From positions 1 to 50,959 of the IMG/VR virus record IMGVR_UViG_3300037484_000760: a stretch of DNA of 50,959 bases, one strand, 5' to 3'. Below, one piece after another: positions 1 to 50,959 of the stretch. The stretch's first letter is position 1; every line of letters begins with the position of its first letter. Source of the DNA: a virus (Duplodnaviria > Caudoviricetes). A program made the translations under genes and the position numbers. Below the pieces are notes generated by a model, which did no database searches, was not told the DNA's origin, and was given only the letters and a program-made list of their open reading frames with translations.

Positions 1-127
1 CCTTACTTGTTGTCAACACTCCTAACTTCCCTGTCACAGCTAATGCAACGGCTCCAGTGACGCTGGCAACCTCAGTTCTTTGGCCCGGAAGCTTCTCTCA
101 TTCAACTTACTCCATTACGTTTAACGG
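1..127 (+). repeat. 127-bp exact repeat, copy 1 (other copy 49770..49896)
   Basis: Direct base-by-base identity, followed by divergence at mostly synonymous positions. Confidence 0.97.
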
Positions 128-1487
128 TCCGGTATCCTTCCCGGATGCTCAAGTGTTCACCGGTCCGGGGGCAGTGGTCTTCGGTTCCGGCTCAGTCTCT
201 GCAATCAATCCGGCATGGGGGTCGGGAACGGATACGGCTAAGACGCAATGGGCGGTTACAACAGCTCTGGCCTCTGGCGTTATGCCTATTGAAGTGTCGC
301 GCAAATACACCCTGACGAGTGCCGTAACCATAGATCGAGCCGTTGACACAACTACCAACGATCTCAGGATTATAGGTAAGGGGCTTGATGCCGGGTTCTA
401 TACTGCATCAGCTATCAGCATGTTTTCCAGCTCTATAGCAAACACTGATGACCCTGTGTCCGAACACATTTCCTTTGAGAACATTCGTTTTGCCGCAGAT
501 AGCGCAGCGACAAACTGCTACGTTATGGATGGGAACAAATTCCTCCGCGTTAAGATGAACAACTGCTATTTTTACGGAATTCGCCTTGCTAATACTGACC
601 AGTATTATCAGTCATGGGATATAACCAACAGTTATCTTACCGGCTGGCAGGGGACTTGGTGGAATGCCACAAACGGTGGAGGTACATTCGGGGGTAGGTT
701 CCTTGATTTGCATATCAGTCATTTTAAAGTTGAATTTGGCGCAGTAGGGAATAGCAAACTCATCGTAAGCGCAGGGCAGATTATAGGTGGTGCATTCACA
801 AACTCGCTGGTCGAGAATTTTGATGGTCCGGTTATAGAAACAAATGGCTTCGCAGGGTTCGATATATCAGGTAATTATTTTGAAGCAATAGTAAACCCCG
901 CGTTAAAACTTGGGACCACTGTTTCTTTAAGCCTAGTAGGCAACAACTTTGTTGATCCCAGCAGTGCAGCATGGATTGCCGTAGATTGCGAAACTTCGGC
1001 TAATGTCTACAGTTCGGGGAACGATAGCAGTGCTCACTTGTTTGATGATTCGGGCATGGTACGAGGTTCAGGAGATGGGCTAGTGTCCTTCGGGGATGTT
1101 GCAGTTGGGAATATCTACATTGATGCCGCGAAAAACCAATTAACCAAAACAGGAACATTGACCGGGTTCACCACCACAGTTCAGCAACTTTACTATGTTA
1201 CTCGTAATGCCAATGTAGTAACAATGTCATGGGATACCCAGACTGGAACAAGCAATGCGACCACTATGACGCTGACGGGGGTTATCCCTACCAGTTGGCT
1301 TCCTGCGACACAGAAATCCATATCAATCATCGTACAGGATAACGGCTCTTGGACTACTGGGCTCATGGTCATATCCAGTGCAGGAGTTTCAATCTACAAA
1401 GATATAACCGCCGGGACTCTACCGTTTACCGCATCCGGGACTAAGGGAATAGGTCGGCAGTCGATTAGTTACAGTATTGTACCTTAA
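3..1487 (+). CDS. Tailspike/tail-fibre protein with parallel beta-helix body, 5'-truncated at the window edge (variant B)
   Basis: Frame is open from position 3 (LLVVNTPNF...). Contains 'NPAWGSGTDTA', N/S/G-rich beta-helix-like repeats and a C-terminal 'YVTRNANVVTM...IPTSWLP' fibre-tip-like domain. Confidence 0.75.
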   Translation, partial: LLVVNTPNFPVTANATAPVTLATSVLWPGSFSHSTYSITFNGPVSFPDAQVFTGPGAVVFGSGSVSAINPAWGSGTDTAKTQWAVTTALASGVMPIEVSRKYTLTSAVTIDRAVDTTTNDLRIIGKGLDAGFYTASAISMFSSSIANTDDPVSEHISFENIRFAADSAATNCYVMDGNKFLRVKMNNCYFYGIRLANTDQYYQSWDITNSYLTGWQGTWWNATNGGGTFGGRFLDLHISHFKVEFGAVGNSKLIVSAGQIIGGAFTNSLVENFDGPVIETNGFAGFDISGNYFEAIVNPALKLGTTVSLSLVGNNFVDPSSAAWIAVDCETSANVYSSGNDSSAHLFDDSGMVRGSGDGLVSFGDVAVGNIYIDAAKNQLTKTGTLTGFTTTVQQLYYVTRNANVVTMSWDTQTGTSNATTMTLTGVIPTSWLPATQKSISIIVQDNGSWTTGLMVISSAGVSIYKDITAGTLPFTASGTKGIGRQSISYSIVP

Positions 1488-1516
1488 CGACCATCAACAA
1501 CCGAGAGGTGAAGAGC

Positions 1517-1822
1517 ATGGCTGAACATGAGCAGGCACGGTCCGGCGATGAGCGAAGAGCGCGGCCCCCTCTCCACGTAGAATGCCAGATGTTTGTTACG
1601 GAGGAAAGCCGGGTGGCTGTTCGGCACGTAATCACCCTCATGACCCCGGAGAATATCCAGGTGGTTGAACGGTGGCTTGACAGGCTGAAAAAGGCTGAAT
1701 CATCGGCGTGGGATATATTCGTGAGGTCTGTAAAGGTCGGCGTATTTCTGATAGCCGCAACGATTCTTTACCAACTGACGCAAGCTGAATTCGTTTCATG
1801 GTTGAAGAAGATAGTAAAATGA
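1517..1822 (+). CDS. Small membrane protein (possible holin/anti-holin type)
   Basis: GAGG upstream; single C-terminal hydrophobic segment (VGVFLIAATILYQL) and basic tail. Confidence 0.55.
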   Translation: MAEHEQARSGDERRARPPLHVECQMFVTEESRVAVRHVITLMTPENIQVVERWLDRLKKAESSAWDIFVRSVKVGVFLIAATILYQLTQAEFVSWLKKIVK

Positions 1823-1903
1823 TCATCTGCCCCACGGCAATCCAAGCACCGAGAGTGAGGCATTGCGGGTGTAGATACTGCGACCTAGGCAGGGAGGTAA
1901 TTG

Positions 1904-2140
1904 ATGAATGCAATCCTCCGAGAACAACAAGAAGCGTGTCGGGAATGCCCGGCGCGAAATGGGAATGCGCTCAACTGCGCCAGGATGCCATCAGACACTC
2001 CGGCTTGTTTGCCACGGCCCTTGCCGACCGAGATTGATGCAGGGGAAGTGCAGCCAAGCGTGTCCGTTCCAGCCGGATATGTGCATAATTCAGTTGTCTT
2101 AAAACAGGCTCTTGAACTGATAGAGGAGAAGAAATCATGA
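1904..2140 (+). CDS. Hypothetical Cys-containing protein
   Basis: GGAGGT RBS upstream; stop overlaps the next ATG (ATGA). Confidence 0.5.
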   Translation: MNAILREQQEACRECPARNGNALNCARMPSDTPACLPRPLPTEIDAGEVQPSVSVPAGYVHNSVVLKQALELIEEKKS

Positions 2141-3258
2141 AGAAAATACTTGCATGGGTGGTGATGATCAGTCTGGTGGCTTCCAATGCTTTCGGCTTTG
2201 GAGCGGGGACCGGGTGGTATCCACCGGCAGGCCCTTCAGACGGCCAGATGTTAGCATGGGACTCGGCGACGAACTCCGTGGTTTGGACTACCGGCACCGG
2301 GACGGGTGATCTGCTGGCGGGAACTATGGGGGCGGCGGGGAGCATCTGCGTAAATACCGCTGTTGCTAATACTCTTGATTGCAATGTGGCACAGGCCACG
2401 TTTGAGCCTGATATTACTTTCGGGACTGGGGTTTTAACGGCCCTTGGAGTCAATGTAGGCTCTGTCGGTGCTCCTGTAATTAACGGTGGTGCTCTTGGAA
2501 CTCCTTCCAGTGGAACTCTTACAAACTGCACATTCCCAACGCTTAATCAGAACACCAGCGGAACGGCGGCGGGTCTTTCAGGTACTCCAAATATCACAGT
2601 CGGCACAGTCAGCGCCGGAGCTGGTGGAATGCTCGTTGACGCTGATGGAGATACTACCGTCAAGAGTATTGCGATAGCTGCGTCAGCCGCTCCAGGCGGG
2701 GGATATATGGATTCAGACGCCCCCGGCGCAGATAAAGAAGTAGCATTTGACGGGGCGGCTTATGTCGATGGGGCCGATGGCTCGGAGAATGGGACACGCG
2801 ATCTTTACGTCCATGAGGGGGGAACAAGAACCTCATACATTCAACTTGACGGTAAGAACGTCCAGGTGGAGATTAACAAGCCCGTAACCCTTGGAGCGAA
2901 CAACTTTGTTACTACTGGTTCAATGTCGGCTGGCATCCCGAGTGTGGCCGATGCTGATGCTCATTCAGTAACGGGCGCGGAAGCCTACGGTTACATGGGA
3001 TGGGCGACAGGGGCGGGAACATGGACACTCCCGGCTGCGGTGGCCGGGATGAATCTTTGCGTCTATTCAACAACTGCGGCGGCGATTGTGATTAACCCTG
3101 ATGATGCAGATGTTATTGTCCTAAATGGAACGGCATTGAGTGCAGGGGATTCGATTACATCTGCTTCCGGCGCGGGAGACTTTATCTGCATCGTTGCCAG
3201 AGATGGAACAAACTGGCATACACTTGGACGCTCCGGCACTTGGACTGATACCAACTAG
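2137..3258 (+). CDS. Tail-fibre-like protein with N-terminal signal peptide
   Basis: MKKILAWVVMISLVASNAFG signal-like N-terminus; G/T/A-rich; LGTPSSGTLTNCT and TLPAAVAG motifs of the kind seen in phage fibre proteins. Confidence 0.65.
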   Translation: MKKILAWVVMISLVASNAFGFGAGTGWYPPAGPSDGQMLAWDSATNSVVWTTGTGTGDLLAGTMGAAGSICVNTAVANTLDCNVAQATFEPDITFGTGVLTALGVNVGSVGAPVINGGALGTPSSGTLTNCTFPTLNQNTSGTAAGLSGTPNITVGTVSAGAGGMLVDADGDTTVKSIAIAASAAPGGGYMDSDAPGADKEVAFDGAAYVDGADGSENGTRDLYVHEGGTRTSYIQLDGKNVQVEINKPVTLGANNFVTTGSMSAGIPSVADADAHSVTGAEAYGYMGWATGAGTWTLPAAVAGMNLCVYSTTAAAIVINPDDADVIVLNGTALSAGDSITSASGAGDFICIVARDGTNWHTLGRSGTWTDTN

Positions 3259-3271
3259 GAGGACGAATTCG

Positions 3272-4015
3272 ATGAAATCATTCCTTGTGATTCTAATAAC
3301 CCTTTTCTCAATAGTCCACTGCTATGCGGGGGGAGTAATGATGATGGGCGGTGGAGTGCCGGTTGTGGCTGGCGGTTTTTGCTCTACAGGATGCACGGGA
3401 GACCTTGTTTTCTGCTGGGGCATCGACGGCGACGCTGTTACAGGGGACTCAATAACTCTCACAGATGGATGTTCCGCAGGTGATGCTACAGTCACATTTA
3501 ATAGTGGAACCACGGTGGAGCCTAATCCCTCCGGTAGTGGGTACGCGCTATACTTCCCAACATCAAGCGATACGGGTCTGTTCGACGTAACAACAGACGA
3601 TATCCTTGACGATACAGTTGGGACATTCCAGGCAGATATCTACGTTACAACTTGGGCTGATTTGACAGGCGTATTGAGAGTATTTGGGCAAATAGACACG
3701 GATTTTGTACGGATTAGGTTAAGTGGCACAGATGAAATCACAATTTCACATGAGGGGAACAATGCAGGAACCGTTACAGCTACAACAGGCGCGGCTAACA
3801 TGGTAATTAATGGTTGGTATACGATAACAGGCAAGTGGCGAACAGGTGTTACTGACCCGTCGCTGTCTATAACTGCCAATGCAAGCACTGGTACGTCTAC
3901 AACAGATTTGACCGAATGGGCAATACAGCCATCGCAGATACAGCTGGGGCGACCCGACGGTGTTGCTGGGGTACTCTACATGAAAAATATTAAAATTTGG
4001 AAGGCATGGCAATGA
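3272..4015 (+). CDS. Secreted-type protein, probable LamG/concanavalin-like beta-sandwich
   Basis: AGGAGG RBS; MKSFLVILITLFSIVHCYA signal-like N-terminus; 'GWYTITGKW...YMKNIKIW' LamG-like pattern. Confidence 0.6.
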   Translation: MKSFLVILITLFSIVHCYAGGVMMMGGGVPVVAGGFCSTGCTGDLVFCWGIDGDAVTGDSITLTDGCSAGDATVTFNSGTTVEPNPSGSGYALYFPTSSDTGLFDVTTDDILDDTVGTFQADIYVTTWADLTGVLRVFGQIDTDFVRIRLSGTDEITISHEGNNAGTVTATTGAANMVINGWYTITGKWRTGVTDPSLSITANASTGTSTTDLTEWAIQPSQIQLGRPDGVAGVLYMKNIKIWKAWQ

Positions 4016-5673
4016 GAATAACTATATTTGTAACTTTATTACTTGCACTGTCATCACAAATATATGCCGCTCCATCTGTATCTACGGTATCAGGTACAGT
4101 ATCGCATGGACAAAGTGTTACAGTGTCGGGCGCGGCTTTTGGAACTCACGCAGATTACAATAGTATTTCTGATACATGGCAGGGTAATGATTTCCTAAAT
4201 TTCAGGTTTAAAGACTTTGAAGACAACGTCATGGAGTCTGATGGTCTAGTAACTAATTTTGACGATTCTCGTGCAGTGGCAACTCCGGGAGCCCATGCAG
4301 GCACCTATTACGGTAATCTATATTATGGTACAGCAGAAGAACGTATACAGTTGACAGTTGACAATATAAATTCCACAGGTACATGGTGGGCTTCATTTTG
4401 GTTTATGATGCCCGCAGATACGCAATCAGGTAAATTTTTCAGGATATATATGGGGGCAGATAGTTCACGGGACAATTTTTACCTGTCTACTGGATGTTCT
4501 GACAGAATGCTAAGAGGTGCGAATGAGGCCGGGGGTGCTACAGTATACGGGAGTCCTAACCAATTCGGAGTAGGGACATGGCATCGTGTTGATGTTTTAG
4601 CAACGGCGTCAACAGGTAACCTCAATGTAACTACGTGGATGGATGGGGCGCAGCAGTGGGCCAAAACTAATTGGGGGCCAAATTTAATTTATTCTCCTGA
4701 CGGCCATTCGTTTATGGCAAACGAAAGGATAGACGCTGTAGGAGCGAGTCGATGCGCCGCGCATCCAACATGGGATGGCGCGTACAATTATGATGATATA
4801 TATTTTTCTTACACTCAGGCCAGGGTTGAAATATGTTCAGGTAGCACTTGGGCTGCAAAAGGTACTTGTGAAATCCAGATACCCCAAACCTGGGCTGACA
4901 CTACTGCGGTTATTACTGTCAACCAAGGGGCATTTGCAGATAGTTCAACCAACTACCTTTATGTTGTGGATTCGGCTGGGGTGGCAAGCAACGCTGAAGA
5001 AATTACCTTCGGCGCTGGGGCACCAGACACCACGCCCCCAACGGTAACATCAGCATCAGTCAATGGCACTACAGTCACGGTTAACTTTGATGAAGCCGTT
5101 GTAACAACCGGCTATGATGCGGCTGATTTCAATATCGACTGTTCTACGGCAGGAACGGATATCTCCCTTACCAGCCCGACAGGGACAGGAGCAAGCAGGA
5201 CATTCACGGCGGCGTCATCCGTGGCGGCTGGCGATACCTGTAATCTTGATTATGTGGGCGGGGCCGATGACATAGAAGACGCGGTGGGAAACGACCTTGC
5301 AACATTTTCCGATACTTCCGTAACAGTCAATACTGCCGATGTTGCAGCCCCCATAACGACCATTTCAACAAGCGACCCGTCAACCATAGTTCCAGACAGC
5401 CTTTCTGCTACTGGCACTGCCTCTGATGCTGTTGGCGTTTCAGGTTGTAAATGGCGCATAGGGTTTGCCCCTGATGATACACACGGGACTTCCTGCACTG
5501 GAACGACCTCGTTTACCTGCGCCACTACCGGCTATGCTAGTGGAGCAAATACTTTGCATGTCGCTTGCTATGATGCCGCAGGAAACTACGGGGATGATTC
5601 GATAACAGTTAATTACGACCCCCCCGCGACTTGCCACACGGGTAGATCAATTAGCGGAATGTCGTTACAGTAA
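4012..5673 (+). CDS. Secreted-type multidomain protein (polysaccharide-lyase/lectin-like domain plus Ig-like repeats)
   Basis: MRITIFVTLLLALSSQIYA signal-like N-terminus; WHRVD and YDDIY jelly-roll-like motifs; DTTPPTV and GTASDAVGVS Ig-like linkers; paired Cys. Confidence 0.6.
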   Translation: MRITIFVTLLLALSSQIYAAPSVSTVSGTVSHGQSVTVSGAAFGTHADYNSISDTWQGNDFLNFRFKDFEDNVMESDGLVTNFDDSRAVATPGAHAGTYYGNLYYGTAEERIQLTVDNINSTGTWWASFWFMMPADTQSGKFFRIYMGADSSRDNFYLSTGCSDRMLRGANEAGGATVYGSPNQFGVGTWHRVDVLATASTGNLNVTTWMDGAQQWAKTNWGPNLIYSPDGHSFMANERIDAVGASRCAAHPTWDGAYNYDDIYFSYTQARVEICSGSTWAAKGTCEIQIPQTWADTTAVITVNQGAFADSSTNYLYVVDSAGVASNAEEITFGAGAPDTTPPTVTSASVNGTTVTVNFDEAVVTTGYDAADFNIDCSTAGTDISLTSPTGTGASRTFTAASSVAAGDTCNLDYVGGADDIEDAVGNDLATFSDTSVTVNTADVAAPITTISTSDPSTIVPDSLSATGTASDAVGVSGCKWRIGFAPDDTHGTSCTGTTSFTCATTGYASGANTLHVACYDAAGNYGDDSITVNYDPPATCHTGRSISGMSLQ

Positions 5674-5684
5674 GGAGAGGATAG

Positions 5685-6122
5685 ATGGCCCCAAGATGGT
5701 ATGAACATGCGTTAAAGGATAAAGGTCTGAAGGAAATCCCCGGCCAGGGTGCGAACCCCCGTATAGTGGAGATGTTCACTCACACTACTTACCACGCCAA
5801 ATCAGACGAAGTGAGTTGGTGTGCGGCGGGAATGTGTTGTTGGCTGGAAGAGTGCGGGATTCCTTCCACCCACTCAGCAGCGGCAATCTCATACGAGACG
5901 TACGGCACGAAGTTGACCGAGTTGAGGCAAGGGGCCATCCTGGTATTTAAACGCCGCGTACAGGGCAGACCTGATGCCAGACACGTAACATTCTGCTCAA
6001 GCGAGTGGACCGATACCCATGCCTATTGCTTCGGAGCGAACCAACACAACATGGCCGATTACTCTTGGATGCCCCTGAAAGACCTCGAAGAGATTCGTTG
6101 GCCGAAAGGTGAACCGCTGTAA
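5685..6122 (+). CDS. Endolysin, NlpC/P60-CHAP-like peptidase (TIGR02594-like)
   Basis: GLKEIPG..NPRI, DEVSWCAA, HVTF and GANQ motifs. Confidence 0.85.
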   Translation: MAPRWYEHALKDKGLKEIPGQGANPRIVEMFTHTTYHAKSDEVSWCAAGMCCWLEECGIPSTHSAAAISYETYGTKLTELRQGAILVFKRRVQGRPDARHVTFCSSEWTDTHAYCFGANQHNMADYSWMPLKDLEEIRWPKGEPL

Positions 6123-6149
6123 GTCAGTACTACTTAAAAGGAGAACAAA

Positions 6150-6422
6150 ATGGAACAGATTAAAGCAATGTTGGCAAGCTGGCAGCCGGTTGTATCGACG
6201 TGGGTGATTGCGTTCTTTTCATTCGTAATGTTTAAGCCTGCATACTTTGCCGATTGGTTGGTTGACTTGGCGATATGGGGAGCTGGTGGTGGTTTGGTCG
6301 CTTTAGGCTTTGTAACGAAACAACATAACGTCACTGGTGGGACAAAGCCTATTGCCAGTAATGAGGCTGCAAGGGCTTCAGTCTTGGAACCTACTTCGAC
6401 AAAGGAAGGAGTCCAGAAATGA
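6150..6422 (+). CDS. Putative holin
   Basis: Two hydrophobic segments, charged C-terminus, adjacent to the endolysin. Confidence 0.6.
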   Translation: MEQIKAMLASWQPVVSTWVIAFFSFVMFKPAYFADWLVDLAIWGAGGGLVALGFVTKQHNVTGGTKPIASNEAARASVLEPTSTKEGVQK

Positions 6423-6664
6423 GAAAACTACTTATCCTGTCATCAGTACTCATGGCGGGCTGTCAGACGCTGAGCGTTCCAGTCACAGTTAACTTACCCT
6501 CAGGGGCGGTTACAGGGGATGTATCTCCGCTTGAAATCTACGTCTCTCTGACGAACTGTAACAACAAGGAAGTTGTCATCCCAACTGACATGCTCCGCAA
6601 CGCAAACCTTCAGGCACCGATGCAGGGCGGGACTACTCAGGGAGATCAAGTACAAGGAAAATAA
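6419..6664 (+). CDS. Lipoprotein (possible spanin component)
   Basis: MRKLLILSSVLMAG-C lipobox-like N-terminus within the lysis cassette. Confidence 0.6.
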   Translation: MRKLLILSSVLMAGCQTLSVPVTVNLPSGAVTGDVSPLEIYVSLTNCNNKEVVIPTDMLRNANLQAPMQGGTTQGDQVQGK

Positions 6665-9087: not shown

Positions 9088-9780
9088 ATGACTCTTGATG
9101 CAAGTAAACCTACAGATGAAGAGATTCTTTCATTCCACGCTTCCTATATAAGGGAGATTAAGGCCGCTCTAAATACTCTTGAGGAGGCTCAAGCTGAGGG
9201 GCTGCTTCCTGCTGCAACCCTGGCAGCGAACGCTGATACTTCTCCGTCGGTAGATGGAGTTGTTCTCCTGGTTACGCAGAACGCAGGCGCCACGCTTATC
9301 AGCTTCTTTGATGACGCTTATGACGGCCAGTTCATCATACTCCTCGCTGGGGACGCCTACACAACCGTGCAGCATGACAGTGGCCTTATTCAACTGACCA
9401 GTTTGGGTAACGTAAAACTCCGTCAAGGTGAGGCTATCCTTCTGGCCTTCTACGACAGCGTTTGGCATGAGGTAGGGGGCTACAAGAGAACGACGCAGAA
9501 GATCGTTACTGATGCAACTTATTCGGTGCTCAACACAGACGTAGCGCTGATTGGTAATGCAGCTGCTGGAGACCAAACGTTTACCCTTCCTCTAGCGTCC
9601 TCCGTCTCAGAGGGCCACGAGGTGCAGGTGAAGAAACTCAGCTCTCATGCAGGCGTGGTCAACACTATTCGTCAGGCATCTGACTACATCGACAACGGGA
9701 CTGAGTACGAACTAACCCTCGAGGGCGAGTGCGTTACTTTCTCCTCTGATGGTTCCACAACTTGGTATCGCTTTAACTAG
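9088..9780 (+). CDS. Tail/fibre-like virion protein
   Basis: AGGAG RBS; C-terminal 'TFTLPLASS...VQVKK...DGSTTW' fibre-type domain. Confidence 0.55.
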   Translation: MTLDASKPTDEEILSFHASYIREIKAALNTLEEAQAEGLLPAATLAANADTSPSVDGVVLLVTQNAGATLISFFDDAYDGQFIILLAGDAYTTVQHDSGLIQLTSLGNVKLRQGEAILLAFYDSVWHEVGGYKRTTQKIVTDATYSVLNTDVALIGNAAAGDQTFTLPLASSVSEGHEVQVKKLSSHAGVVNTIRQASDYIDNGTEYELTLEGECVTFSSDGSTTWYRFN

Positions 9781-15082: not shown

Positions 15083-15109
15083 GAGTGGCCTCAGAAATGG
15101 GGCCACTTT
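15083..15109 (+). terminator. Hairpin after the capsid gene (GAAA tetraloop)
   Basis: GAGTGGCCTCA-GAAA-TGGGGCCACTT, weak U-tract; overlaps site #3. Confidence 0.6.
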
Positions 15110-15130
15110 GGTTAATTTTCAACCGGAGTG
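15104..15130 (+). promoter_or_regulatory. 27-bp dispersed palindromic site #3
   Basis: CACTTTGGTTAATTTTCAACCGGAGTG; its GGAG doubles as an RBS. Confidence 0.85.
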
Positions 15131-15134
15131 GATC

Positions 15135-15845
15135 ATGGCCCTTCTTGAGATAAGACAAAAGTTTGTTGAGTTCACTGGACGGTATGACCTGGTAGTTGAC
15201 ACTGACGCGTTTGCAGATAATGGGGCAGACTGGTTCATTAATGCCGGTCAACGCTATCTGGATCGGAGTCTTGACGTTGGGAAGACAAGGGCGAAGTACT
15301 TTGGGACCCTCCTTACCGAACGCCACGCTATGGCTATCCCCCAAGCCCGGGTCATTGAGAGGGTCTACGCAGTGGTTGAGGGAGAGCAGAAGGAGTTACA
15401 CAAAGCTGAGTCTGACTTCATCCTTTGGTTCTACAACAAGTATCGGGAAGAGGCTCTTACGCGCCCCTACTACTATTCCCCCACCGTCCTACGGATTGCT
15501 GAAGACTCTTCCCTCAACAGTATTCCCGGGGACATAGCTACGGTGCAATACCAAGATGAGGAATACTCAGGAATTCTCTTCGGCCAGAAGGCTGACCAAG
15601 ACTATGGGATTATAGTTCAAGGACTCTTCTATTCGCCTAAGCTCCTGACGGACACAAGCAGGAGTTTCTGGACTGAGGTGCATCCGGAGATACTTATCGC
15701 CGCATCCCTGCTGTCGATAGAACGCCTCTATCGGAACTTTGAAGGAGTGAAGGAAAGCCGGGCCTCGGTGCAGGAGTTGGTGATGCAACTGGATATGGAT
15801 GAAGTGGCACAACAGATAGTAGACGTCAACCAGATGGAGGGCTGA
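15135..15845 (+). CDS. Head-tail adaptor / tail tubular protein A-like
   Basis: Position after the capsid gene; 'WFINAGQRYL' and 'FWTEVHPEILI' adaptor-like motifs. Confidence 0.7.
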   Translation: MALLEIRQKFVEFTGRYDLVVDTDAFADNGADWFINAGQRYLDRSLDVGKTRAKYFGTLLTERHAMAIPQARVIERVYAVVEGEQKELHKAESDFILWFYNKYREEALTRPYYYSPTVLRIAEDSSLNSIPGDIATVQYQDEEYSGILFGQKADQDYGIIVQGLFYSPKLLTDTSRSFWTEVHPEILIAASLLSIERLYRNFEGVKESRASVQELVMQLDMDEVAQQIVDVNQMEG

Positions 15846-15846
15846 G

Positions 15847-16266
15847 ATGAACGAGGAAACGCTTGAGGCATTAGAAAAGAAGATTAACGAAGTTCGGTTG
15901 GAGGTCAAGAAGAGGAAGGTCATCAAGATGGCCCCTGATCAGTACTTCTCCCTCTACCTCTCCAATCCAGGCATTACCAACGGGATGTTTCTCCCAGCTG
16001 GGAAGATTATAAAGATTGTAACAGCTCTCTTCGACGCACCGAAGGGGACGCTTTATCTCAGCATTAACCAGCTGCATGAAAGCCGGACTATAGAGATTTC
16101 CCTGAACAAGGGCGTAAGGAATATTGACAAGGAGATAATCCTTCCTGAGGACTCAGCTGTGCTGGTTAAGTTCGACGCTGAGAACGCTAACGCCTATATG
16201 ATAGTCGGCTGTGTCTTCCAAGGGAAAGGTTTTCATATTGTGGAGAAGGGGGAAGAAGATGCGTGA
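15847..16266 (+). CDS. Hypothetical virion protein
   Basis: RBS present; tightly packed in the tail module. Confidence 0.6.
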   Translation: MNEETLEALEKKINEVRLEVKKRKVIKMAPDQYFSLYLSNPGITNGMFLPAGKIIKIVTALFDAPKGTLYLSINQLHESRTIEISLNKGVRNIDKEIILPEDSAVLVKFDAENANAYMIVGCVFQGKGFHIVEKGEEDA

Positions 16267-17578
16267 GTATCCTTTCGCTCTTAAGGGCCATATAACTAAA
16301 GGTATAGTGCCTACTCCTGGTAGTGATCAGGAGGGGCTCTATACCTGCACGAACGCTAGGCCATTCAGCAGGGGGATGGAATTCGTTGCGCCGTACGCAT
16401 CTTACCTTGACCTCGAAGTGGTCTTCCCTTTCTCGCAACTCCTAGTCACGGATAAGTATAAGTATGTGGCCTACTCAACTGGGATATATGAAGTAGTTAA
16501 CAACGCCCTGGTGAGTCGGGCCAGCTTAGCCCTATCCAGCCACGTTGATCTGGCGGACTTCAAAGATTCTGTGGCGCTGACTGGAGGCAACAAAACGCTG
16601 ATTCGTAATGCCGCTGGAGCGCTGGTTGAAGTAGATAATGTCCCCAAGGCGAATGCTTGCTGCAGCTTTGAAGGGCTGCTAGTCCTGGGCAACATTGCTA
16701 GTTGGACTCAATCAGCAGATGTTGGCGCCGACTCCATCGCATGGGCAAGTCGACCAAGAAGTGCTGACTTTGTCCTTTCAGTGGCCAACGTAGCAACAGG
16801 TGCTGGGTTCTCTCGTCTCTTCTGTGGGACAGTTTTGAAAGTACTGAATGTGGATAAGAAGTTAGTCGTCTTTGGGACGAAGGGTATTGCAGTACTGGAC
16901 CTGCAGTCTGCACCCCTTCCAGCTTTTGGCGTCTCAAAGACTTATAAGGCTTCTATCACTTATAAGGAGAGTATTGTTCAATCTGACTCACAGGTTCTAT
17001 TTGTCGACTCTCTTGGCTTTCTCTGTTCTTTCTCTGTCGAGAAAGGACCGGTAGTATTAGGCTTCGAACGGTTCTTTTCTGGTCCTGTAGTTGGCTCTTA
17101 CAACGAGCAGGATCAAGAAGTGTATATGAGTACTGAGACTGATGCGCTGGTTATTACATCTAGTGGAGTTGGCCGCCTAGCTCAGGCTATCACCTCTTGT
17201 GGTTGGGACGGCTCAGCGTTGTGCGTAGTTGCCTCTACCCCGTCTTCCGAAAACCTCGAACTGATCATAGATAACTGCAACATGGCTATTGGCGCGAACA
17301 AGACGCTCTACGCCCAAGAGGTGACTGGCGAAACTGATGGACGGTTCGAAGTAGGCGCCTTCTTCAAGCGGGATGCATCCTCTTCCTACCTCAACGCTGG
17401 CTACTCTTCCTGTGGCCCCGGCGGAGTTGGGACGAAGATTGTTGAAGGCTCTTCCTTCCGTCCCAAGATACGCGTCATTGAGCCGGAGCATGCCAAAGTG
17501 TTCGACTACAATCTGCGCTGGAAACTAACTGACAAAAGGAGTGTAAGAGGCTACTATGATAACAAGACTTCTGCCTGA
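16259..17578 (+). CDS. Tail nozzle / tubular protein B-like (beta-propeller)
   Basis: Beta-rich 439 aa in the podovirus nozzle position. Confidence 0.65.
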   Translation: MREYPFALKGHITKGIVPTPGSDQEGLYTCTNARPFSRGMEFVAPYASYLDLEVVFPFSQLLVTDKYKYVAYSTGIYEVVNNALVSRASLALSSHVDLADFKDSVALTGGNKTLIRNAAGALVEVDNVPKANACCSFEGLLVLGNIASWTQSADVGADSIAWASRPRSADFVLSVANVATGAGFSRLFCGTVLKVLNVDKKLVVFGTKGIAVLDLQSAPLPAFGVSKTYKASITYKESIVQSDSQVLFVDSLGFLCSFSVEKGPVVLGFERFFSGPVVGSYNEQDQEVYMSTETDALVITSSGVGRLAQAITSCGWDGSALCVVASTPSSENLELIIDNCNMAIGANKTLYAQEVTGETDGRFEVGAFFKRDASSSYLNAGYSSCGPGGVGTKIVEGSSFRPKIRVIEPEHAKVFDYNLRWKLTDKRSVRGYYDNKTSA

Positions 17579-21789: not shown

Positions 21790-24700
21790 ATGACAACGAA
21801 GTTTGAAATGCCCGATGGGACGACATATGAGGTGGAGGATAATGAAGTTGACGACAAACTCCTGGCAGAGATGCAGGACTTGCATGACAAGCACTCGGGA
21901 GAGGCCGGCTTTGGTACGAAGGTAGGTGGGTTCGTCAAGGGGCTGGCTAAGGGGGCTGTGCAGGGCATATCAGGGATTCCTAAAGCAGCTGCAATCTTCG
22001 GCGCTGCGGATGTGAACAAGGCGCGGGCTGACGTTGGCTTGCCGCCCAAGGCAGCAAAAGACTCCCCTATATATAAATTCGGAGAATGGCTGGACGAGAC
22101 AGTTGCCCCACGCATAGATGCCCGGGTCCGTGGCGATTTCATGACGCAGGTGGGAGCGGGCCTCGGACAGGTTGCTACCTCTATAGCTACTGGCGTCGTC
22201 GCTGGTGGGGCCACCAAAGTTGGTCAACTCGCAACTGCGGCCGTCCCAGCTATGGGCATGCAGATGAGTGAGGACTATGGGAGGGCCGTAGAGAAGGGCG
22301 CTACTGAGGAGGAGGCCGTCACCGCGGGTATGTGGGGAGCTGCTTGGGGCGCTACAGATGTGCTGCCCTTCGAGAGGGCGTTCTCCATCTTGCAGAAGGC
22401 CAGCCCTGGGTGGAAAGGCTTCGTCAAAGATGTAGGTGGACAGTTCTTCCTCGAGGGGGGTCAGGAGGGGATGCAGCAAGTTCTCTCTAATGCGACAGCT
22501 AAGCTGACTTATGACGAGCAGCAGTCGTTGATGGAAGATGTGTTGCCTAGTGCTAGCGTTGGCGGAGTTGTTGGTGCCCTCGCTGGGACCATCCTCAACG
22601 TGCTTGGCGCAAAGGGGAAGGTTAAAGTTGGGAAGGACAAGACTGGGAGTGGTACTCCGGGGAATGAGACTATTCCGTCGGCCAGTGCTGGTGATGAATC
22701 TGCTGCGGCTAAGATCATAGCTGATCTCAAGGCCCAGGGGATCGGTGCTACTGCCACAGAGAATACTACGGTTGTAGTTCCGGCGAGCAAGAAGTTGGAG
22801 CCCACCACTGTTGATTCTATCCAAGCAAATATGGATGGAACTTTTACTCCGAGCCAAGCGTTTGCGAAGAAGCTGCTGGAGGCTGGAGCGAGTGAGAGCG
22901 AAGTTCACGCTGTGTTGAGTTTGACCAATGCTCATGCAAGGTATCGAGGGGAGGACCTCGACACGTTTGTGGAGCAGAGAGTTGCCGATGTGCGAAAGGG
23001 TGGGAAGGGTGAGCTGAATCAGGCCCAAGTACTTGACCTGAAAAAGCGGCTATGGGATAAGCGGATTGAGAAAGAAGGTGGAATAGCCGCTGGAGAACAT
23101 TATTCTTATGATAGCCGCGGCAATCCAATAGACCAGTATGGTCGACAACTTGAAACAGTACAAGAGAATATTGCAAGAGTCGAGGAAGAGCAGAAAGGAT
23201 GGGAAAGGATTGGTAGTTCAATCGCTGTTGTTGATATAGAAGATATAATAACAGGCGATACTATAATACCTAAAGGCACTCGCATTACATACGAACATAT
23301 ACAGCAGATGGAAGAGATGGGATATGAGCCAAACTCCCCGTATATGAAAAGATCTTTTGCTCCTGCTGGACCGAGAAGTTTGAATCAGGCCGAAGTAATT
23401 GATATGGCTTCTCGTGGGGTACCTAACAGTATTATTAACGGCTTTAAATTAGCTAACCGGGAAAAAGGTAGGGTTAGTTACTTGGCTATGTCTCAGTCAA
23501 TTACGCCAGAAGAAATGCAATCTATTCCACCGGCTACCTGGAAGGCTATAGAGGAGACGACGGGCTTAAGTAAACGTATAGAAGAAGAACGACAAAGGAA
23601 AACAAAGAGCGGTGATACACCAACTATTACCGAACAGAAGGTTGATGTTATAAAAAGGAATGCTGTAGTAGACTACGTTGTACAAACCTTTGGGAGAGAC
23701 ACGCTGAATCAGGCTGAACAAGAAGCAGAAGTTACCACAACAAAGCTAACCCGTGGGGAGAATGCTTTCTTCAGTCAGATATTTAGTAATGAGGCAGACT
23801 TACAGGAATTAAAGGAGGCTGTTCCTAGTATTCAATTCGTTAACGGTGAGGTAAGCATTGATCCAAAGGACAATATAGCTCTAGCTAACTATGTAGATGA
23901 CGTTGTACGTTTGAATGAAGGAGATAGATTACCTCCAAGTTTTCACTCAGGCCTGTTCACTACCAAGCTTTTTCAGAACGTCAAGGGAGCTGTCTCATTC
24001 CTCGAAGACGGACGCGCCGTCATCAGCATCATGCAGAAGGCCGACGCATCTACCATTCTTCATGAGATGAGTCATATCTTCAGACGGTCCCTTCTCGACG
24101 AAGAGGCAGCAGCCGCCAACGAGTGGGTCGGCGCTGGCTCCAACGAATGGACAACTGAACAGGAGGAGTTGTGGGCCCGCTCATTCGAACGTTATCTGCG
24201 TCGCGGCAAAGCTCCCAACGCCTACCTCAAGGAAGTCTTCGAGAAGATGCGGACTTGGTTGAGGCGCATCTATAAGACCCTCAAAGGTAGCCCCATCGAC
24301 TACCCGCTTGATCCTAAGGTCGTGGCGCTATTCGACAAGATCTTGACGCCGGCAGAGCTGCCGAGCCAGAAGAAAGCTTTCGAAATGCCTTTCGCTGCGT
24401 GGCAGAAGGTTTATGGTGAAGACGAAGCGGCCATGTACGGGCTGACGGATAAGAGTGTGGCTGTTAGAGAGCCTTCTCGCTTCTCAACGCTGGTCAACGA
24501 CGTTAACAACAAAGCTGCCCGTGGTATAGTCCTCGGGAGGTATCTAACCAAGGCTGAGACTGAGGCACAACTTGCTATAGTCACAGCTCCGGAGTACCTC
24601 CAGCAGCCTCTCGCTGCTCAGGACCTCGACAGCTATATCATTAGAGTGCTGAACCTCTTCGCTGTACGGGCCAACGCTGCGTTTCATGAGAACTCCTCCA

Positions 24701-27700
24701 TCGCCCCTATCCTTGAGGACCTTCAGATTCAACGAGACAATGCAGAAAAGAAGAGCCTCTTCGACAACGATCTGGGTCATGCTTATATGGATGAAACAGG
24801 TGGGATGATCGTAACTAGGCGCACCGAGTTCGATGAGACAATCAAGTTCATCACGAAGCTGGACAACATCCAGAAGGTGAAGGAAAGCTGGGCGACTCCG
24901 GCAAGAGAGCAACTCCTCAAAGTTAAGAACGATCTCTTCAAGGGGCAGCAAGATGTGGTCATGGACAGGACGACGGGCAACATCTATGCGGTCGAACAGA
25001 AGAGTGTGTATCATGCTTCGTTGGTGGACGTAGACAGAGGCACAGTAAGACGTGTTCCCATATCTGATCTCTACGCCAAGTTCATCTGGCCTGAGATCAT
25101 CTCTCCCGACTCCGGCGCCACCCTAACCAAGGACGAGTGGATGCTGGAGCGCCATTACAAGGAGGTACGTGATGCTGTTGATCGAGGAGAGGTTGTACCT
25201 TCATTCGCTATCGAGCCGCATCTCACAAAGGACCCTACGTTGCAAGATAACTTTGACAGCGCTAGTGCTTTTGAAGATAATCAGGATGGAACGAGCGCTC
25301 AGTCGGATGCTATTATTCAGCTCTTCCAAGAGGCGCAAGATCCTTCTAACCTTCCCAATGATGATGAGAAAGTCGTTGCTGGCCCGACTCGTCGAGTTGA
25401 CCAAAGCCACTTAGATAAGATCGCAGTTATTGTGCAGGCTTCGTATAAGGAACTCTCTCGCCTCAGTAACGTGACAGACCATGAAGAGGGGCCACGTCTC
25501 CTTGATATGATTTCTAAGACGGAGCTGCAACGACTGGCACGTATCCAAGGGGCAGTAGGGGAGCGTCCCGCTGAAGAGTACTTAGCTGATCTCTACAAAG
25601 AGCTTGACGAATACAAAGCTGCCCTTCGTGATCGCTCCAATGAGCTGGATGCAGGAACAGTTGGGTTAATTTTTGACCGAAGCGGAACAATATATGAAGG
25701 GTTGAAGAAGTTTACTGATACGATTGAGAACATAGGGCAGTCTAGGCTGCTTGACGAGCACCCGACTATTAGCTGGACAAGGAACGCTAACCATTGGCTC
25801 CAGCGGAATATCCTACACAAGGAGCCCACCGTCGAAAGCTCTGTGACCTGGGCTTGGAATAGGGCCTTCTTCACCATGCAAGGCCTTTCCAACCGATACC
25901 CAGTTGCGAAGCCTCTCTTTAAGTTGGCTGTAGGGATGAGGAATAACTCTTCCAAGGTCCAGCATGATCTCATGCTTGGGAAGAGTGAGATTGAAACCAT
26001 CCAGATAGAGAAGGATGGAGGAGTTGTTGAGCTGAAGTTGAAGGCACCTGGGCTTAGAACTCTCCGCAGCTTGGGGACCAACAGCCCAGCGTATGACGCT
26101 CTTCGTTCGCTTATAGTTGTAGGTGACAAACTTCGTTCGCAGTTCAAAGTGGAAGAGATCATATCTGGGATGGACGCCAGAGTTGAGGCGCTCGTTAAGG
26201 GAGCGAATGAGGCAACTGATCCAGCCGAACAGGCTATGTTGGTCCAAGAGGCGACGGCATACGAAGCGCTTAATCAGATACTTAGTCGGAAGAGTATAGA
26301 GGATAGAAAGCTGGCGGCTAAGGCTTACTTTGAGATACAGGATACTTTGCAGTACTCCTACTTTAAGACTCGCCAGGTGATGGAGAATATTCTTGGGAAG
26401 CAAGCAGGGGAGAAGGTGATGAGCCATATTTATCCCCAAGGGTATATCCCCGGCTACTTCCCCCACATGCGCTTTGGGAAGTACGGCGTTGTAGTTAAGG
26501 ACGCCGAGAATAAGACGAAGTACTTTACAGCCTTCGAAGATTGGGTCAGCCAGAAGAATGCCCTAGCTGAGTTGAAGGCAAAGTATCCGAACGATCGAGT
26601 GGCGGTTGTCGATACTACGAATCGCCTTGATCTGAAGTTGGGCGGAGGCGAGGACATGATGACTGCGATTCAAGACGTTATTATGAAGACGCAGTTGAAT
26701 CAGACCATAGAGGATCCAGCCACGCTGGAGGCTGTGCAGAAGGCGCTAATTGAGACGACTACGGAAATGGTTAAGGCGCATGGGATATTCTCCATGTTCA
26801 AAGAGAGGCAGGATGTTCCTGGGTATGATGAGCGTATTACGAGAGTTATGTTCAACAGGGTTCAGGACTTCGCCTCGGCCATAGCAAAGATTGAGTTCGC
26901 TCAGAAGGGGGCGAAGGAACTGGCAACGCTACGCCATAATCCCAGGTTGTATAACTACTCCTCCGAGTGGTTCGGGGCTATGCTGGAAGGGGCCGACAGC
27001 TCTGACGCCATGATGAGTAAGATAAGAGCTGCTATATTCCTCAAGCATCTGGGCTTTAACATTAAGACAGCCTTCGTCGTCTTTATGGATAAGCTGACTA
27101 ATGCCCCTAGCGTGCTTGGGAAATACACTACACAGGCAGACAAGAAGATCATCGCCGGCCTGGGGGACACAATGAGGTTCATGTCCTGGCTGCATAAGGT
27201 TGAAAAGGTGATGAACAGCACTGGAGTTTCCCGTGACGTTGCAGTGAAGCAGCTGGGGCTGGCTGAAGGCTTTGATGAAGAGACTACGAACGCCCTTCTC
27301 TGGTCGATGGACTCTGGTGCGACGCTCGCCAAGTTCATGCCCGAAGTGATGAACAACGAGACTATGACGTGGGAAGCTGAGCGTGGCGGGGAGAGCGCGG
27401 TTGGTCGAGGTCTTTATGTAGCCGGCTTCGGGATGCGCAAAGTGTTCGATGCATCTGCATGGATGGTCAGTAAGATGGAAGAACTGAATAAGATGAGTAC
27501 TTTCTTGAGCGCTTACAGGGTGATGAGAAAGGAGAAAGAATACTCGTTTGACCGCTCAGTAGATGTGGCACAAGATATAGTTAACGATGCTCATGTGGTG
27601 TATGGAAGGAGTAATATTCCCCTGCCTTTCCTCAGGAAAGGGATATGGAAGTACTCTCGTATGGCTTACATCTTCCGCGCTTTCGAGCACAACTATCTCC

Positions 27701-42575: not shown

Positions 42576-42760
42576 TTGATCTCCTCAAGTGTGGTTGGCC
42601 TCTTCTGCAAATAAGGCTCGTTGTAGGCGCCATAGACGATGACGTACTCGTCTGGGATGCGATCAAGAGTTCGGTCGATCACTACGTTGACGCGATCAGT
42701 GGCGCAGTCCCAGCAGACGGCGCTGACGAAAATGACGAGGAGCATTAGGGCTTTACTCAT
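42557..42760 (-). CDS. Small protein with hydrophobic N-terminus
   Basis: MSKALMLLVIFVSAVCWDC; GGAGG RBS. Confidence 0.45.
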   Translation of the reverse strand: MSKALMLLVIFVSAVCWDCATDRVNVVIDRTLDRIPDEYVIVYGAYNEPYLQKRPTTLEEIKWRKEK

Positions 42761-42871
42761 CGTCGTCCTCCTCGCATTGGCAAGTTTCGCCGTCAACGAA
42801 GAGGACGCGGCACACAGTACAGCGCCACTCTCCTTCGTTGTCCTCGTTAGTTTGAATGTGGAAGAACTTGG

Positions 42872-49121: not shown

Positions 49122-49460
49122 ATGAGAGTACTTGTGATAGCAGTTGCCGTGACCCTGGGCTTGGCGCTGACCAGCTTCTTAGCCGACGCTGTGTCGGACT
49201 TCCCTTATGATAATGCCCAGATCTTTGCGCCCAATGGGAAGTTGACGGAGAGTATAACTTCGGCTACCACGCGCAATTTGACCAAGACCCGTGTCTGGCG
49301 CGTGACGTCTACCACGGCCTGGAAGAGGATGCACACGGCAACTTCAGCCAAGGATAGCACCTATGTTGATGTACCTGCCGGCATCACAGAGTTGGGCGTC
49401 AGTTCCATCACCCCCTTCCTTCACATGACCAGTGTTACTGGCACGTTAGAGAGGCAATAA
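49122..49460 (+). CDS. Small secreted-type protein
   Basis: AGGAGG RBS; MRVLVIAVAVTLGLALTSFLADA signal-like N-terminus; Thr-rich beta domain. Confidence 0.7.
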   Translation: MRVLVIAVAVTLGLALTSFLADAVSDFPYDNAQIFAPNGKLTESITSATTRNLTKTRVWRVTSTTAWKRMHTATSAKDSTYVDVPAGITELGVSSITPFLHMTSVTGTLERQ

Positions 49461-49462
49461 AT

Positions 49463-50959
49463 ATGCTTCGGTTAATTATCACCCTAAGTGTTTGTCTCCT
49501 CACTCTTAGCCAAAGCGCCTTTGCTGGCACAATCGCTTCGGATATCTTCAGAGGGAGGCTAGGGGTCTTCACGAACATGACTGGGGTTTCAGTTAAGGCT
49601 GCTACGCTCAGAGGGCAGCTGACTGGGAATGTAACTGGGAATGTAACTGGTAACGTAACTGGAGACCTTATTGGTAATGTGACGATATTAGGCTCAGTTA
49701 AAGATATCCGCTTCTCCGACGAATTTGCCTCATACAACGCAGCTATTACTGCAATTGGTAGTACTCCCGCCTTACTTGTTGTCAACACTCCTAACTTCCC
49801 TGTCACAGCTAATGCAACGGCTCCAGTGACGCTGGCAACCTCAGTTCTTTGGCCCGGAAGCTTCTCTCATTCAACTTACTCCATTACGTTTAACGGCCCT
49901 GTATCTTTCCCCGATAGCCAGGTGTTCACCGGGACGGGGACGGTGGTATTCGGCAGGAAATCTACAAGGGCGCTTAATCCCTTATGGTGGGGTGTTAACG
50001 CTAGCGGGACCAACACCACAACGGAGATGCAGAGTTGCTTTAATTCTGCCTTTGCGAGTGAGGTCAAGCTGGTTGAGTTCGGTCCGGGCCTGTTCAGAAT
50101 TGATGGAACTGTAAATATAACCGACGTAATTGATATTGAGGGCGTATCTACGGGAACAGCAAGAGCAACTAAAACTAACGCAATGGGATCAACTGTTTTC
50201 TTCACAGATAGTGGAACCGGGAATATGTTCTATGTATATTCTGCCACTGATCGAATCAGTGGCTTCACGATGCGGAACGTGTCCTTACTTGGGTCCGACT
50301 CAATGCTTGTAGATACTAATGCTGTTACTAAAACTGCAATATATTTCAAAGATACATTAAGTGAAACCATTATAGACAATGTTAATATTACTGGATTTCA
50401 TGTGTCTGCGCTTTACTTGGACTCAGTATGGGATGCGACTATCCAGAACAGCCGCATTATGTATTCAGGTACAGCAACTGTCCCAGCTTTAGCTTTTGTT
50501 GCTACTGCTGACAATACAAATGCAATTAAATTCACCAACAACCATGTGGAACATTGTCCTTATATCCTTCAATTAGCAAATGGGGCAAGGCAGAATAAAT
50601 TTATAGGTAACAAATTTGAAATAGGTAACCGGACCCCAACAGGATCTCCGTTTAATATAAGTTCTGATTCTGTGTCTAACCTTTTTGTCGGCAATCAGTT
50701 TGTTTATACAACGCACTCGCCATGGTTATTTACTATTGCTAATAAACATACTGTGATTAATGGCAATGTCTTTGAGGGCGCAAATTTCGCTAAATGGATT
50801 TATCATACTGGGGGCGGTTTGGTTTTAACTAACAACTCTTTTTTATGGTCAGACGGCGCAACTTACCCGTTTGTTTTTAACGATAATGTCATTATGACGG
50901 GCAACACTGTTGATCTTCTTCCTCATAGTGGAGATCGTTATTTTGTCCAAATGCATTCC
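49463..50959 (+). CDS. Tailspike/tail-fibre protein with signal peptide and beta-helix body, 3'-truncated (variant A; not in the ORF track)
   Basis: Open frame from ATG 49463 to the window end; MLRLIITLSVCLLTLSQSAFA; TGNV repeats; 'NPLWWG..GT..TTEMQ', 'FGPGLFRI' and N-rich beta-helix repeats. Confidence 0.8.
   Translation, partial: MLRLIITLSVCLLTLSQSAFAGTIASDIFRGRLGVFTNMTGVSVKAATLRGQLTGNVTGNVTGNVTGDLIGNVTILGSVKDIRFSDEFASYNAAITAIGSTPALLVVNTPNFPVTANATAPVTLATSVLWPGSFSHSTYSITFNGPVSFPDSQVFTGTGTVVFGRKSTRALNPLWWGVNASGTNTTTEMQSCFNSAFASEVKLVEFGPGLFRIDGTVNITDVIDIEGVSTGTARATKTNAMGSTVFFTDSGTGNMFYVYSATDRISGFTMRNVSLLGSDSMLVDTNAVTKTAIYFKDTLSETIIDNVNITGFHVSALYLDSVWDATIQNSRIMYSGTATVPALAFVATADNTNAIKFTNNHVEHCPYILQLANGARQNKFIGNKFEIGNRTPTGSPFNISSDSVSNLFVGNQFVYTTHSPWLFTIANKHTVINGNVFEGANFAKWIYHTGGGLVLTNNSFLWSDGATYPFVFNDNVIMTGNTVDLLPHSGDRYFVQMHS
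49464..49490 (+). promoter_or_regulatory. 27-bp dispersed palindromic site #15 (overlaps the start codon and signal peptide)
   Basis: TGCTTCGGTTAATTATCACCCTAAGTG. Confidence 0.83.
49622..49681 (+). repeat. 12-bp tandem coding repeat (TGNV/TGDL/IGNV x5)
   Basis: ACTGGGAATGTA ACTGGGAATGTA ACTGGTAACGTA ACTGGAGACCTT ATTGGTAATGTG. Confidence 0.8.
49770..49896 (+). repeat. 127-bp exact repeat, copy 2
   Basis: Identical to 1..127. Confidence 0.97.

Follow-up and report, generated by a model that had tools for sequence, protein, structure and literature searches.

How can a tailed phage, whose particle is in the textbook account assembled wholly in the cytoplasm, come to encode fibre-like and tailspike-like proteins that begin with signals for export? 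The question is raised by the IMG/VR virus record IMGVR_UViG_3300037484_000760, analysed here as a whole (50,959 bp, classed linear and estimated complete; hereafter, the window). Five adjacent genes, which run across its two ends and start at positions 49122, 49463, 2137, 3272 and 4012, each begin with a leader of 19-23 residues of the Sec/signal-peptidase-I type. To judge from their sequences, these leaders sit on the exchangeable host-recognition module of the phage, and its host-recognition proteins probably do not fold in the cytoplasm, where the remainder of the particle is assembled. Our favoured reading, to which we give a probability of about 0.45, is that they are exported receptor-binding proteins that join the particles at lysis. 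The data argue strongly for export and cleavage, and weakly for attachment to the particle after lysis. Spanins and exclusion lipoproteins are exported proteins of tailed phages. Endolysins are another such class (PMC6116005, in the excerpt available). A full-text literature search found no description of Sec signals on the fibres or tailspikes of tailed phages.

The five leaders have the classical three-part build. Written as n-, h- and c-region with a slash at the predicted cut, all on the plus strand, they are MKK-ILAWVVMISLVA-SNAFG/F (2137-2196), MKS-FLVILITLFSIV-HCYA/G (3272-3328), MR-ITIFVTLLLAL-SSQIYA/A (4012-4068), MR-VLVIAVAVTLGLALTSFL-ADA/V (49122-49190; 23 residues) and MLR-LIITLSVCLLTL-SQSAFA/G (49463-49525). 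All five carry a lysine or arginine within their first three residues. The uncharged, hydrophobic h-region spans 11-12 residues in four of them and 18 in the 49122 protein, and the -3/-1 sites are A-F-G or S-N-A (2137), C-Y-A (3272), I-Y-A (4012), A-D-A (49122) and A-F-A (49463). A Shine-Dalgarno-like motif stands 7-10 nucleotides before each ATG: GAGGAG for 2137, AGGAGG for 3272, GGAAGG for 4012 (with an ATGA stop/start overlap with the 3272 gene), AGGAGG for 49122 and GAGAGG for 49463. The true starts therefore do not lie downstream of the hydrophobic segments, a possibility raised in the first-pass annotation of this DNA, and the signal peptides that it had proposed for these five genes are all found at the starts it gave. 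Direct reading of the five leaders reveals no twin-arginine motif and no lipobox at the end of the h-region; a lipobox does occur in the protein encoded at 6419 (LMAGC) and in some distant relatives. Twin-arginine (Tat), lipoprotein and prepilin-type signals were rejected for these leaders on the grounds that they have no RR, no lipobox and no G/FTLIE-type motif.

Leaders were called with a heuristic of our own, which looks for a positive n-region, 8-16 uncharged hydrophobic residues and small residues at -3/-1. It gives leaders to five of the eight cluster genes versus two of the 45 other called genes (Fisher p = 3.7e-4), the lipoprotein gene at 6419 being one of the two. The script alone flagged four of the eight; the 3272 gene was added since its ATG, supported by a Shine-Dalgarno motif, sits 44 codons inside the longest open reading frame (ORF). 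The survey of homologues that the first-pass annotation had called for shows that the signals are kept. In the 3272 family, all 11 aligned sequences, from eight further phage contigs, begin with a hydrophobic leader, and the two closest homologues (65% and 48% identical) keep the leader with a different sequence. In the 4012 family a leader is flagged in 75 of 98 homologues, and small -3/-1 residues directly precede the mature start in 49 of the 58 in which that start (xP-S/A-I/V-S/T) can be located. Among relatives of the tailspike, the leader drifts in sequence, and the mature start is conserved right after the -3/-1 site. A variable leader followed by a conserved cleavage site and a conserved mature start is the signature of a cleaved signal peptide, and we regard it as very probable that the Sec signals of the five proteins are functional.

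The mature parts of the leader-bearing proteins, in which several cysteine pairs had been remarked at the outset, are rich in cysteine: they hold 22 in 1682 residues (1.31%), versus 43 in 7271 (0.59%) for 18 packaging and structural proteins without leaders (p = 0.004), and both close homologues of the 3272 protein retain four of its cysteines. Periplasmic N-glycosylation was considered and dropped, as N-X-S/T sequons are not enriched (z from -1.5 to 0.8), except in the GNVTG repeat of the window's first tailspike allele (z 2.1). A sequence search of solved structures with four of the cluster proteins gave no match below E = 0.1.

Counted from the window's left end, the first of the leader-bearing genes, 2137..3258 (+), encodes a 373-residue fibre-like protein composed of the leader, a conserved mature N-terminus, fibre repeats (residues ~53-180) of a kind common to classic leaderless tail fibres, and a C-terminal beta-sandwich tip (residues 265-373). 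The model of the tip (pLDDT, the predicted local distance difference test, ~90) matches a domain type of solved virion appendages, with Z scores of 12.2 to the Pa223 capsid spike, 11.3 to a KP1 baseplate protein and 11.0 to residues 79-185 of CBA120 TSP4 (root-mean-square deviation 2.2, 93 residues aligned). Leaders were flagged in 27 of the 37 tip homologues with an M start (12 rows without one were left out) versus 5 of 70 homologues that share the repeats only (p = 2e-12). At least three of the 10 unflagged tip homologues show a leader further in, which suggests that their starts were mis-called. The tip profile hits one locus in representatives of 185,579 species versus eight in viral contigs; it was found in no cultured phage, and the 2137 protein matches cultured phages by its fibre repeats only.

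Directly behind the fibre lies 3272..4015 (+), which encodes a 247-residue LamG (ConA-like) protein. Feature and structure searches in the Atlas both give Laminin_G_3, PF13385 (score 0.96; template-modelling (TM) score 0.68 over 190 residues); hmmscan gave no match at E<=0.01. In every case the LamG gene directly follows a gene for a fibre with the tip domain (contigs L006, L007, L011, L021, L022, L023, L027 and L028), and the pair of leader-bearing tip fibre and leader-bearing LamG protein recurs in podo-like contigs as well as in two sipho-like ones whose backbones are unrelated. In the closest named phage, Desulfofustis phage LS06-2018-MD01, a GP4-type fibre I protein (PF23140) and a 760-residue LamG protein (L003, 30313-33392) are both leaderless; thus LamG on phage proteins is not always paired with an export signal.

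The last large cluster gene, 4012..5673 (+), encodes 553 residues with 11 cysteines. Behind its leader, the model (pLDDT 87.5) contains an IPT-like domain, a ConA-like jelly roll, a second, small beta domain and two Ig-like domains. The best compact structural matches are the PL20 glucuronan lyase 2zzj (TM by target 0.60) and the PL14 alginate lyase 5gmt, but the fold is also similar to lectin modules; among cultured phages there was no match. The IPT and ConA-like part also stands alone as a secreted protein of ~355 residues (P0279, P0283, P0289, P0333) on contigs of up to 328 kb; those that carry a label, Patescibacteria, Moraniibacteriota, Steroidobacteraceae or Gammaproteobacteria, reach 312 kb.

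At the other end of the window, 49122..49460 (+) encodes the 112-residue leader protein, a small neighbour of the tailspike gene. It matched no family in Pfam, PHROGs or the Atlas, and homologues with leaders adjoin the tailspike in L012 (33%) and L011 (36%). The tailspike itself, at 49463..50959 (+), is present as the first 499 of 653 residues; the full-length 653-residue protein occurs in the related contig L008, with 100% identity over the 499. Its leader is followed by GNVTG repeats (residues 47-80), a conserved module (84-176) and then a right-handed beta-helix (PF13229, E = 7e-7 on the window fragment and 3e-9 on the full-length copy of contig L009). The N-terminal 176 residues are common to 620 proteins (E<=1e-3), with and without leaders, a leader being flagged in 38 of the best 150. 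The relatives match the tail spike PHROGs 2234 and 7458, and none of them matched the P22-type Head_binding family or another anchor family; residues 22-83 of the window's tailspike matched no family. Comparison with cultured phages gave weak beta-helix matches only. The domains first proposed by eye thus all reappear: beta-helix, LamG, the Ig-like domains in the model of the 4012 protein, and fibre repeats.

The two ends of the window had been taken to join, so that the cluster would be contiguous across them. The gene order stands; the clean circle does not. Positions 1-184 repeat 49770-49953 at 93%, and the ends do not overlap. The left end (1..1487, +; ORF 3..1487) encodes the C-terminal 494 residues of a second tailspike, whose start lies outside the window and which diverges after the shared module. 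In L008 the order is small leader protein, tailspike, small membrane ORF, fibre and so on to TerS. Contigs of a sediment run, X1, branch inside the shared module, where the depth falls from 15.8 to 6.8 on the branch of the first allele; the branches rejoin at a 61-nucleotide segment identical to window positions 1820-1880, and loose ends there read into window-type sequence on both sides. On the strength of the repeat, the non-overlapping ends, the gene order of L008 and this branching, the window ends are two alleles of one tailspike gene within one population or sediment metagenome. The alleles are bounded by the shared N-terminal module and the 61-nucleotide segment, which is 100% identical between the two genome types (window 1820-1880; L008 1761-1944 and 3711-3771), and look like a cassette with fixed recombination borders. 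Directly 3' of the tailspike, 1508..1822 (+) encodes a 104-residue protein with a C-terminal hydrophobic segment, for which no family was found; its equivalent in L008 is an unrelated 87-residue ORF of similar build and position. It is followed at 1901..2140 (+) by a cysteine-rich ORF of 79 residues without a leader.

The variation between close relatives is like that of host-range genes. L008 and L009 are 97.6-99.7% identical to the window in DNA sequence on both sides of the cluster, and the cluster itself is swapped. In L009 every large cluster protein again has a leader, on proteins different from those of the window. Its fibre keeps only the leader and ~45 mature residues, plus a tip that is 32% identical; the first 164 residues of the tailspike are kept between the window and L008/L009; and the L009 homologue of the 4012 protein is 32% identical overall, with one highly conserved stretch. 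Receptor-binding proteins that dock on a constant particle show just this pattern, in which the N-terminus is conserved and the rest is exchanged. Further out, in L009, L011 and L012, the three contigs with TerL at least 77% identical in which the region can be seen, every fibre-like ORF upstream of TerS has a leader. In the seven contigs with TerL 46-52% identical (L013-L019), no leader was flagged on any ORF upstream of TerL, and fibre- or spike-like ORFs are visible there in four (L014, L015, L018, L019); nor was a leader found in the corresponding region of the Desulfofustis phage. Two leaderless tailspike-like proteins, P0010 and P0029, have the phrog_26190 domain from residue ~15-21 onwards; in five that bear leaders (P0034, P0069, P0074, P0045 and P0106) it begins at ~38-42. 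The 'KISEL' fibre motif is at the very start of the leaderless P0153 and right after the leader in P0160, P0181 and P0274. Cleavage would therefore recreate the N-terminus of leaderless fibres.

Downstream of the cluster come the lysis genes: an endolysin-like protein without a leader (5685-6122, +; phrog_1259, E = 4e-20), a holin-like protein with two transmembrane segments (6150-6422, +) and the lipoprotein with the lipobox LMAGC (6419-6664, +). The endolysins of near-identical backbones are unrelated, the window having the phrog_1259 type and L009 (7067-7612) one that we take from its motif to be peptidase-M15-like; the swapped block thus includes the lysis enzyme. Beyond them, 9088..9780 (+) encodes a leaderless backbone protein of 230 residues with an N-terminal helix and beta-sandwich domains (PF25692 Phage_depo_C, E = 8e-6), 100% identical in L009 and 56% in L010/L011. 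It aligns with the first ~150 residues of a leaderless 656-residue protein of the Desulfofustis phage (E = 2e-4). Its N-terminal motif QPTD...YIR recurs at the start of that protein and of a 153-residue ORF in L027. It could be a virion-anchored adaptor, a tail anchor or dock for the exported proteins.

The plus strand, read from 49.1 kb across the ends to 28.5 kb, carries the leader cluster, the lysis genes (5685-6664), TerS, TerL and an SU10-type portal and capsid, then Gly-zipper proteins that match the P22 gp7 ejection protein weakly and below threshold, and finally a 2251-residue protein. The portal (PF23899, E = 3e-15) and major capsid protein (PF17236, E = 4e-30) mark the phage, an uncultured one from sediment, as a short-tailed, SU10-like podovirus; its TerL is 44.5% identical to that of the Desulfofustis phage. 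Tail proteins are encoded at 15108-17578. Replication genes occupy the minus strand from 28.4 to 48.7 kb, and no tRNA was found in the window. The absence of a visible lysogeny module, remarked on earlier, is borne out: the 52 ORFs scanned against PHROGs, which cover the small ORFs only in part, include no match to integrase or repressor families. Promoter- and terminator-like sites in the cluster region show no excess over shuffled sequence, and a sigma-70 promoter before 49122 (TTGACA-N17-TATAGG), read by eye and absent from the scan output, was dropped. The 2251-residue protein (21790-28545), with phrog_9880, phrog_10691 and a weak LPD1 match, closes the structural module. A role as an internal or ejection protein is probable for it, and in the Desulfofustis phage a protein of 1577 residues occupies the equivalent position. 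At 33635-35038 (-) a ParB-like nuclease domain is fused to a DNA methyltransferase domain. Leader-like N-termini also occur within the early minus-strand region at 42732-43196 (+) and 42760-42557 (-), one opposite in strand to its neighbours and the other a 67-residue ORF after GAGGAGG. The clues to the host are three: the name of the relative's host, Desulfofustis, the label of run X1 as sediment, and the presence of a lipoprotein gene at 6419. For window positions 1-5700, no RNA data set is listed as containing the sequence.

The favoured reading can be put as a sequence of events. Late in infection, the host SecYEG would export the tailspike, its 112-residue partner, the fibre, the LamG protein and the IPT/ConA-like/Ig protein, and signal peptidase I would cut their leaders off. 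The proteins would fold in the periplasm, probably with disulfides, and probably in pairs, the tailspike with the 112-residue protein and the fibre tip with the LamG protein. Meanwhile, DNA-filled particles would be assembled in the cytoplasm without the exported proteins. Once the inner membrane has been opened by the holin and the envelope taken apart, the contents of the two compartments would mix, and the mature proteins would use their conserved N-termini to dock on the conserved tail, with the leaderless 9088 protein perhaps as the link. The place in the virion is suggested by the hypervariable cluster, the conserved mature N-termini, the leaders placed before N-terminal motifs of leaderless fibres and the tandem mass spectrometry (MS/MS) of the Cellulophaga phage phi18:3, to which we return below. 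A broader claim, for which we put the odds slightly short of even, is that tailed phages of several host phyla make such two-compartment particles, with receptor-binding proteins mounted when the holin merges the compartments, and that the window cluster is one instance.

Several observations weigh against this reading. The cluster proteins are known here from their genes, and the leader calls come from our own heuristic. The analogy with phi18:3 crosses to another host phylum, with no sequence similarity found, and MS/MS of virions can pick up co-purifying proteins. The ~60 mature residues of the tailspike ahead of the conserved module include no recognised particle-binding domain. Some leader-bearing relatives have lipoboxes (LAGC in P0069, MVGC in P0045), and a lipid anchor suits a membrane-bound enzyme better than a virion part. 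In the sipho-like contigs, the leader-bearing fibre/LamG pair adjoins ordinary leaderless tail-tip genes and looks accessory, and in L021 it adjoins a pair made up of a leaderless fibre and a Tfa-like protein. Finally, the 4012 family has members on contigs of 100-330 kb that bear the label of cellular metagenome-assembled genomes.

In the main rival reading, which we hold possible with odds well short of even, the proteins are exported but never enter the virion. The tailspike, the fibre/lectin pair and the ConA-like/Ig protein would then do their work in the periplasm or at the infected cell's surface, cutting or binding nascent surface polysaccharide. Receptors would thereby be removed or masked, with exclusion of further phages and fewer progeny lost on debris, or capsule, sheath or matrix would be loosened for release. 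Besides the lipoboxes, the insertion of the fibre/LamG pair among complete leaderless tail genes in the sipho-like contigs speaks for this, as do the existence of a leaderless fibre-like backbone protein (9088), the position of the cluster next to the lysis genes, and the likeness of the modelled ConA-like core of the 4012 protein to polysaccharide lyases. Bacteria, too, export tailspike-like enzymes, for example WceF (PMC7949094, as far as the excerpt goes). The periplasmic beta-helix lyase VexL degrades capsule in transit and its cytosolic form does not, according to the available part of PMC6003464; a depolymerase aimed at the polysaccharide of its own cell before lysis would therefore need a periplasmic location. 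However, the same excerpt (PMC6003464) reports that VexL cells stayed sensitive to a capsule-specific phage, so that periplasmic degradation alone did not exclude it there. Moreover, a free enzyme has no evident need for conserved mature N-termini, or for motifs placed as in leaderless virion fibres; no further receptor-binding protein with an enzyme part is visible in the window for the particle to use; and the leader proteins of phi18:3 are recorded in virions.

There are two further alternatives. Left uncleaved, the hydrophobic N-termini might serve as signal anchors and tether the proteins to the periplasmic side of the inner membrane for as long as the holin has not fired, whatever became of the proteins later. 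Signal-arrest-release (SAR) endolysins are held in this way and provide a known case of an uncleaved Sec signal among tailed phages (PMC6116005, in the excerpt available). The 18-residue h-region of the 49122 protein would suit such a role, but the 11-12-residue h-regions of the other four are too short to span a membrane, the -3/-1 sites present in all five are conserved at the border to conserved mature sequence, and SAR domains are rich in Gly, Ala and Ser whereas these leaders are rich in Leu, Ile and Val; we consider it improbable. We find it very improbable that the cluster is cargo unrelated to infection itself, that is, host-derived secreted adhesins or enzymes carried as morons that alter the infected cell through aggregation or biofilm. 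LamG and Ig domains are indeed typical of bacterial surface proteins, and the 4012 family is common as a secreted protein of ~355 residues on long contigs labelled Patescibacteria, Steroidobacteraceae and Gammaproteobacteria. Yet the tailspike and fibre are of phage type, species-representative genomes hardly contain the fibre-tip family, and the cluster has the same orientation as the genes for lysis, packaging and structure, with no terminator-like site between them beyond chance. There would also be little time for such effects, since no lysogeny genes were seen among the ORFs scanned. What probability these four readings leave over is reserved for error.

The choice framed by the first-pass annotation, between an exported adsorption apparatus and a secreted or surface system, can thus be answered in part. 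Its common element, export, is well supported, and the evidence leans towards an apparatus added at or after lysis. The term apparatus claimed too much: with a leaderless fibre-like protein at 9088-9780, not the whole of it need be exported. If receptor-binding proteins are routinely exported, the last step of assembly would depend on the host Sec system, signal peptidase, probably disulfide formation, and the lysis programme. Recombinant production or engineering of such fibres and depolymerases would need periplasmic expression, and host-range genes would be mis-annotated by pipelines in which a signal peptide counts against a place in the virion. If they are kept off the particle instead, the proteins would represent a new class of phage-encoded factors that modify the envelope and are made from parts of tailspikes and fibres. 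The cultured Cellulophaga phage phi18:3 would allow either outcome to be tested.

That phage (Pachyviridae, NC_021794) offers the closest parallel. Its gp085, gp086 and gp087 are three adjacent large proteins with Sec-type leaders, encoded, like the window cluster, upstream of endolysin and terminase, and its record lists them as virion structural or tail proteins 'based on experimental MS/MS proteomics analysis'. The paper behind the record is said to be that of Holmfeldt et al. 2013. The resemblance is one of arrangement: the host of phi18:3 belongs to the Bacteroidota, and no sequence similarity to the window proteins was found. Waiting outside the cytoplasm for the holin is an established strategy of late proteins, as illustrated by the Sec-exported or SAR endolysins Lys44 of fOg44, Lyz of P1 and R of phage 21 (PMC6116005, same excerpt). 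Those are muralytic enzymes, whereas the folds of the window proteins are those of fibres, beta-helices, lectins and Ig domains, and the endolysin-like protein of the window is itself leaderless. Pantoea WceF and Burkholderiales VexL, as the excerpts describe them, are likewise exported beta-helix proteins that cut glycans and act on the polysaccharide of their own cell; unlike the window cluster, they are host-encoded in polysaccharide loci, and the signal of WceF is of the Tat type.

Among virion proteins, CBA120 TSP4, a branched tailspike with docking domains, resembles the fibre tip over the residues given above, although a shared fold shows no function. The adsorption protein g3p of the filamentous Ff phages has a cleaved Sec signal; Ff particles are assembled at the membrane, unlike those expected of the window phage, which has the terminase, portal and capsid genes of a tailed phage. 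The 9088 protein, a short conserved beta-sandwich backbone protein, is a candidate dock like the SP6/K1-5 adaptor. Tailspikes of the P22 gp9 type combine a beta-helix enzyme with a conserved N-terminal part and an exchangeable distal part, and the window tailspike is built in the same way, with a right-handed beta-helix behind a conserved N-terminal part and a distal part that is exchanged. The gp9-type proteins are made and attached in the cytoplasm, without a leader, whereas the window tailspike has one and matches neither Head_binding nor another particle-binding family. The P22-type tailspike is nevertheless the last component to be added, and spikeless particles accept it in vitro; for the proteins of the window, attachment after lysis is thereby physically plausible.

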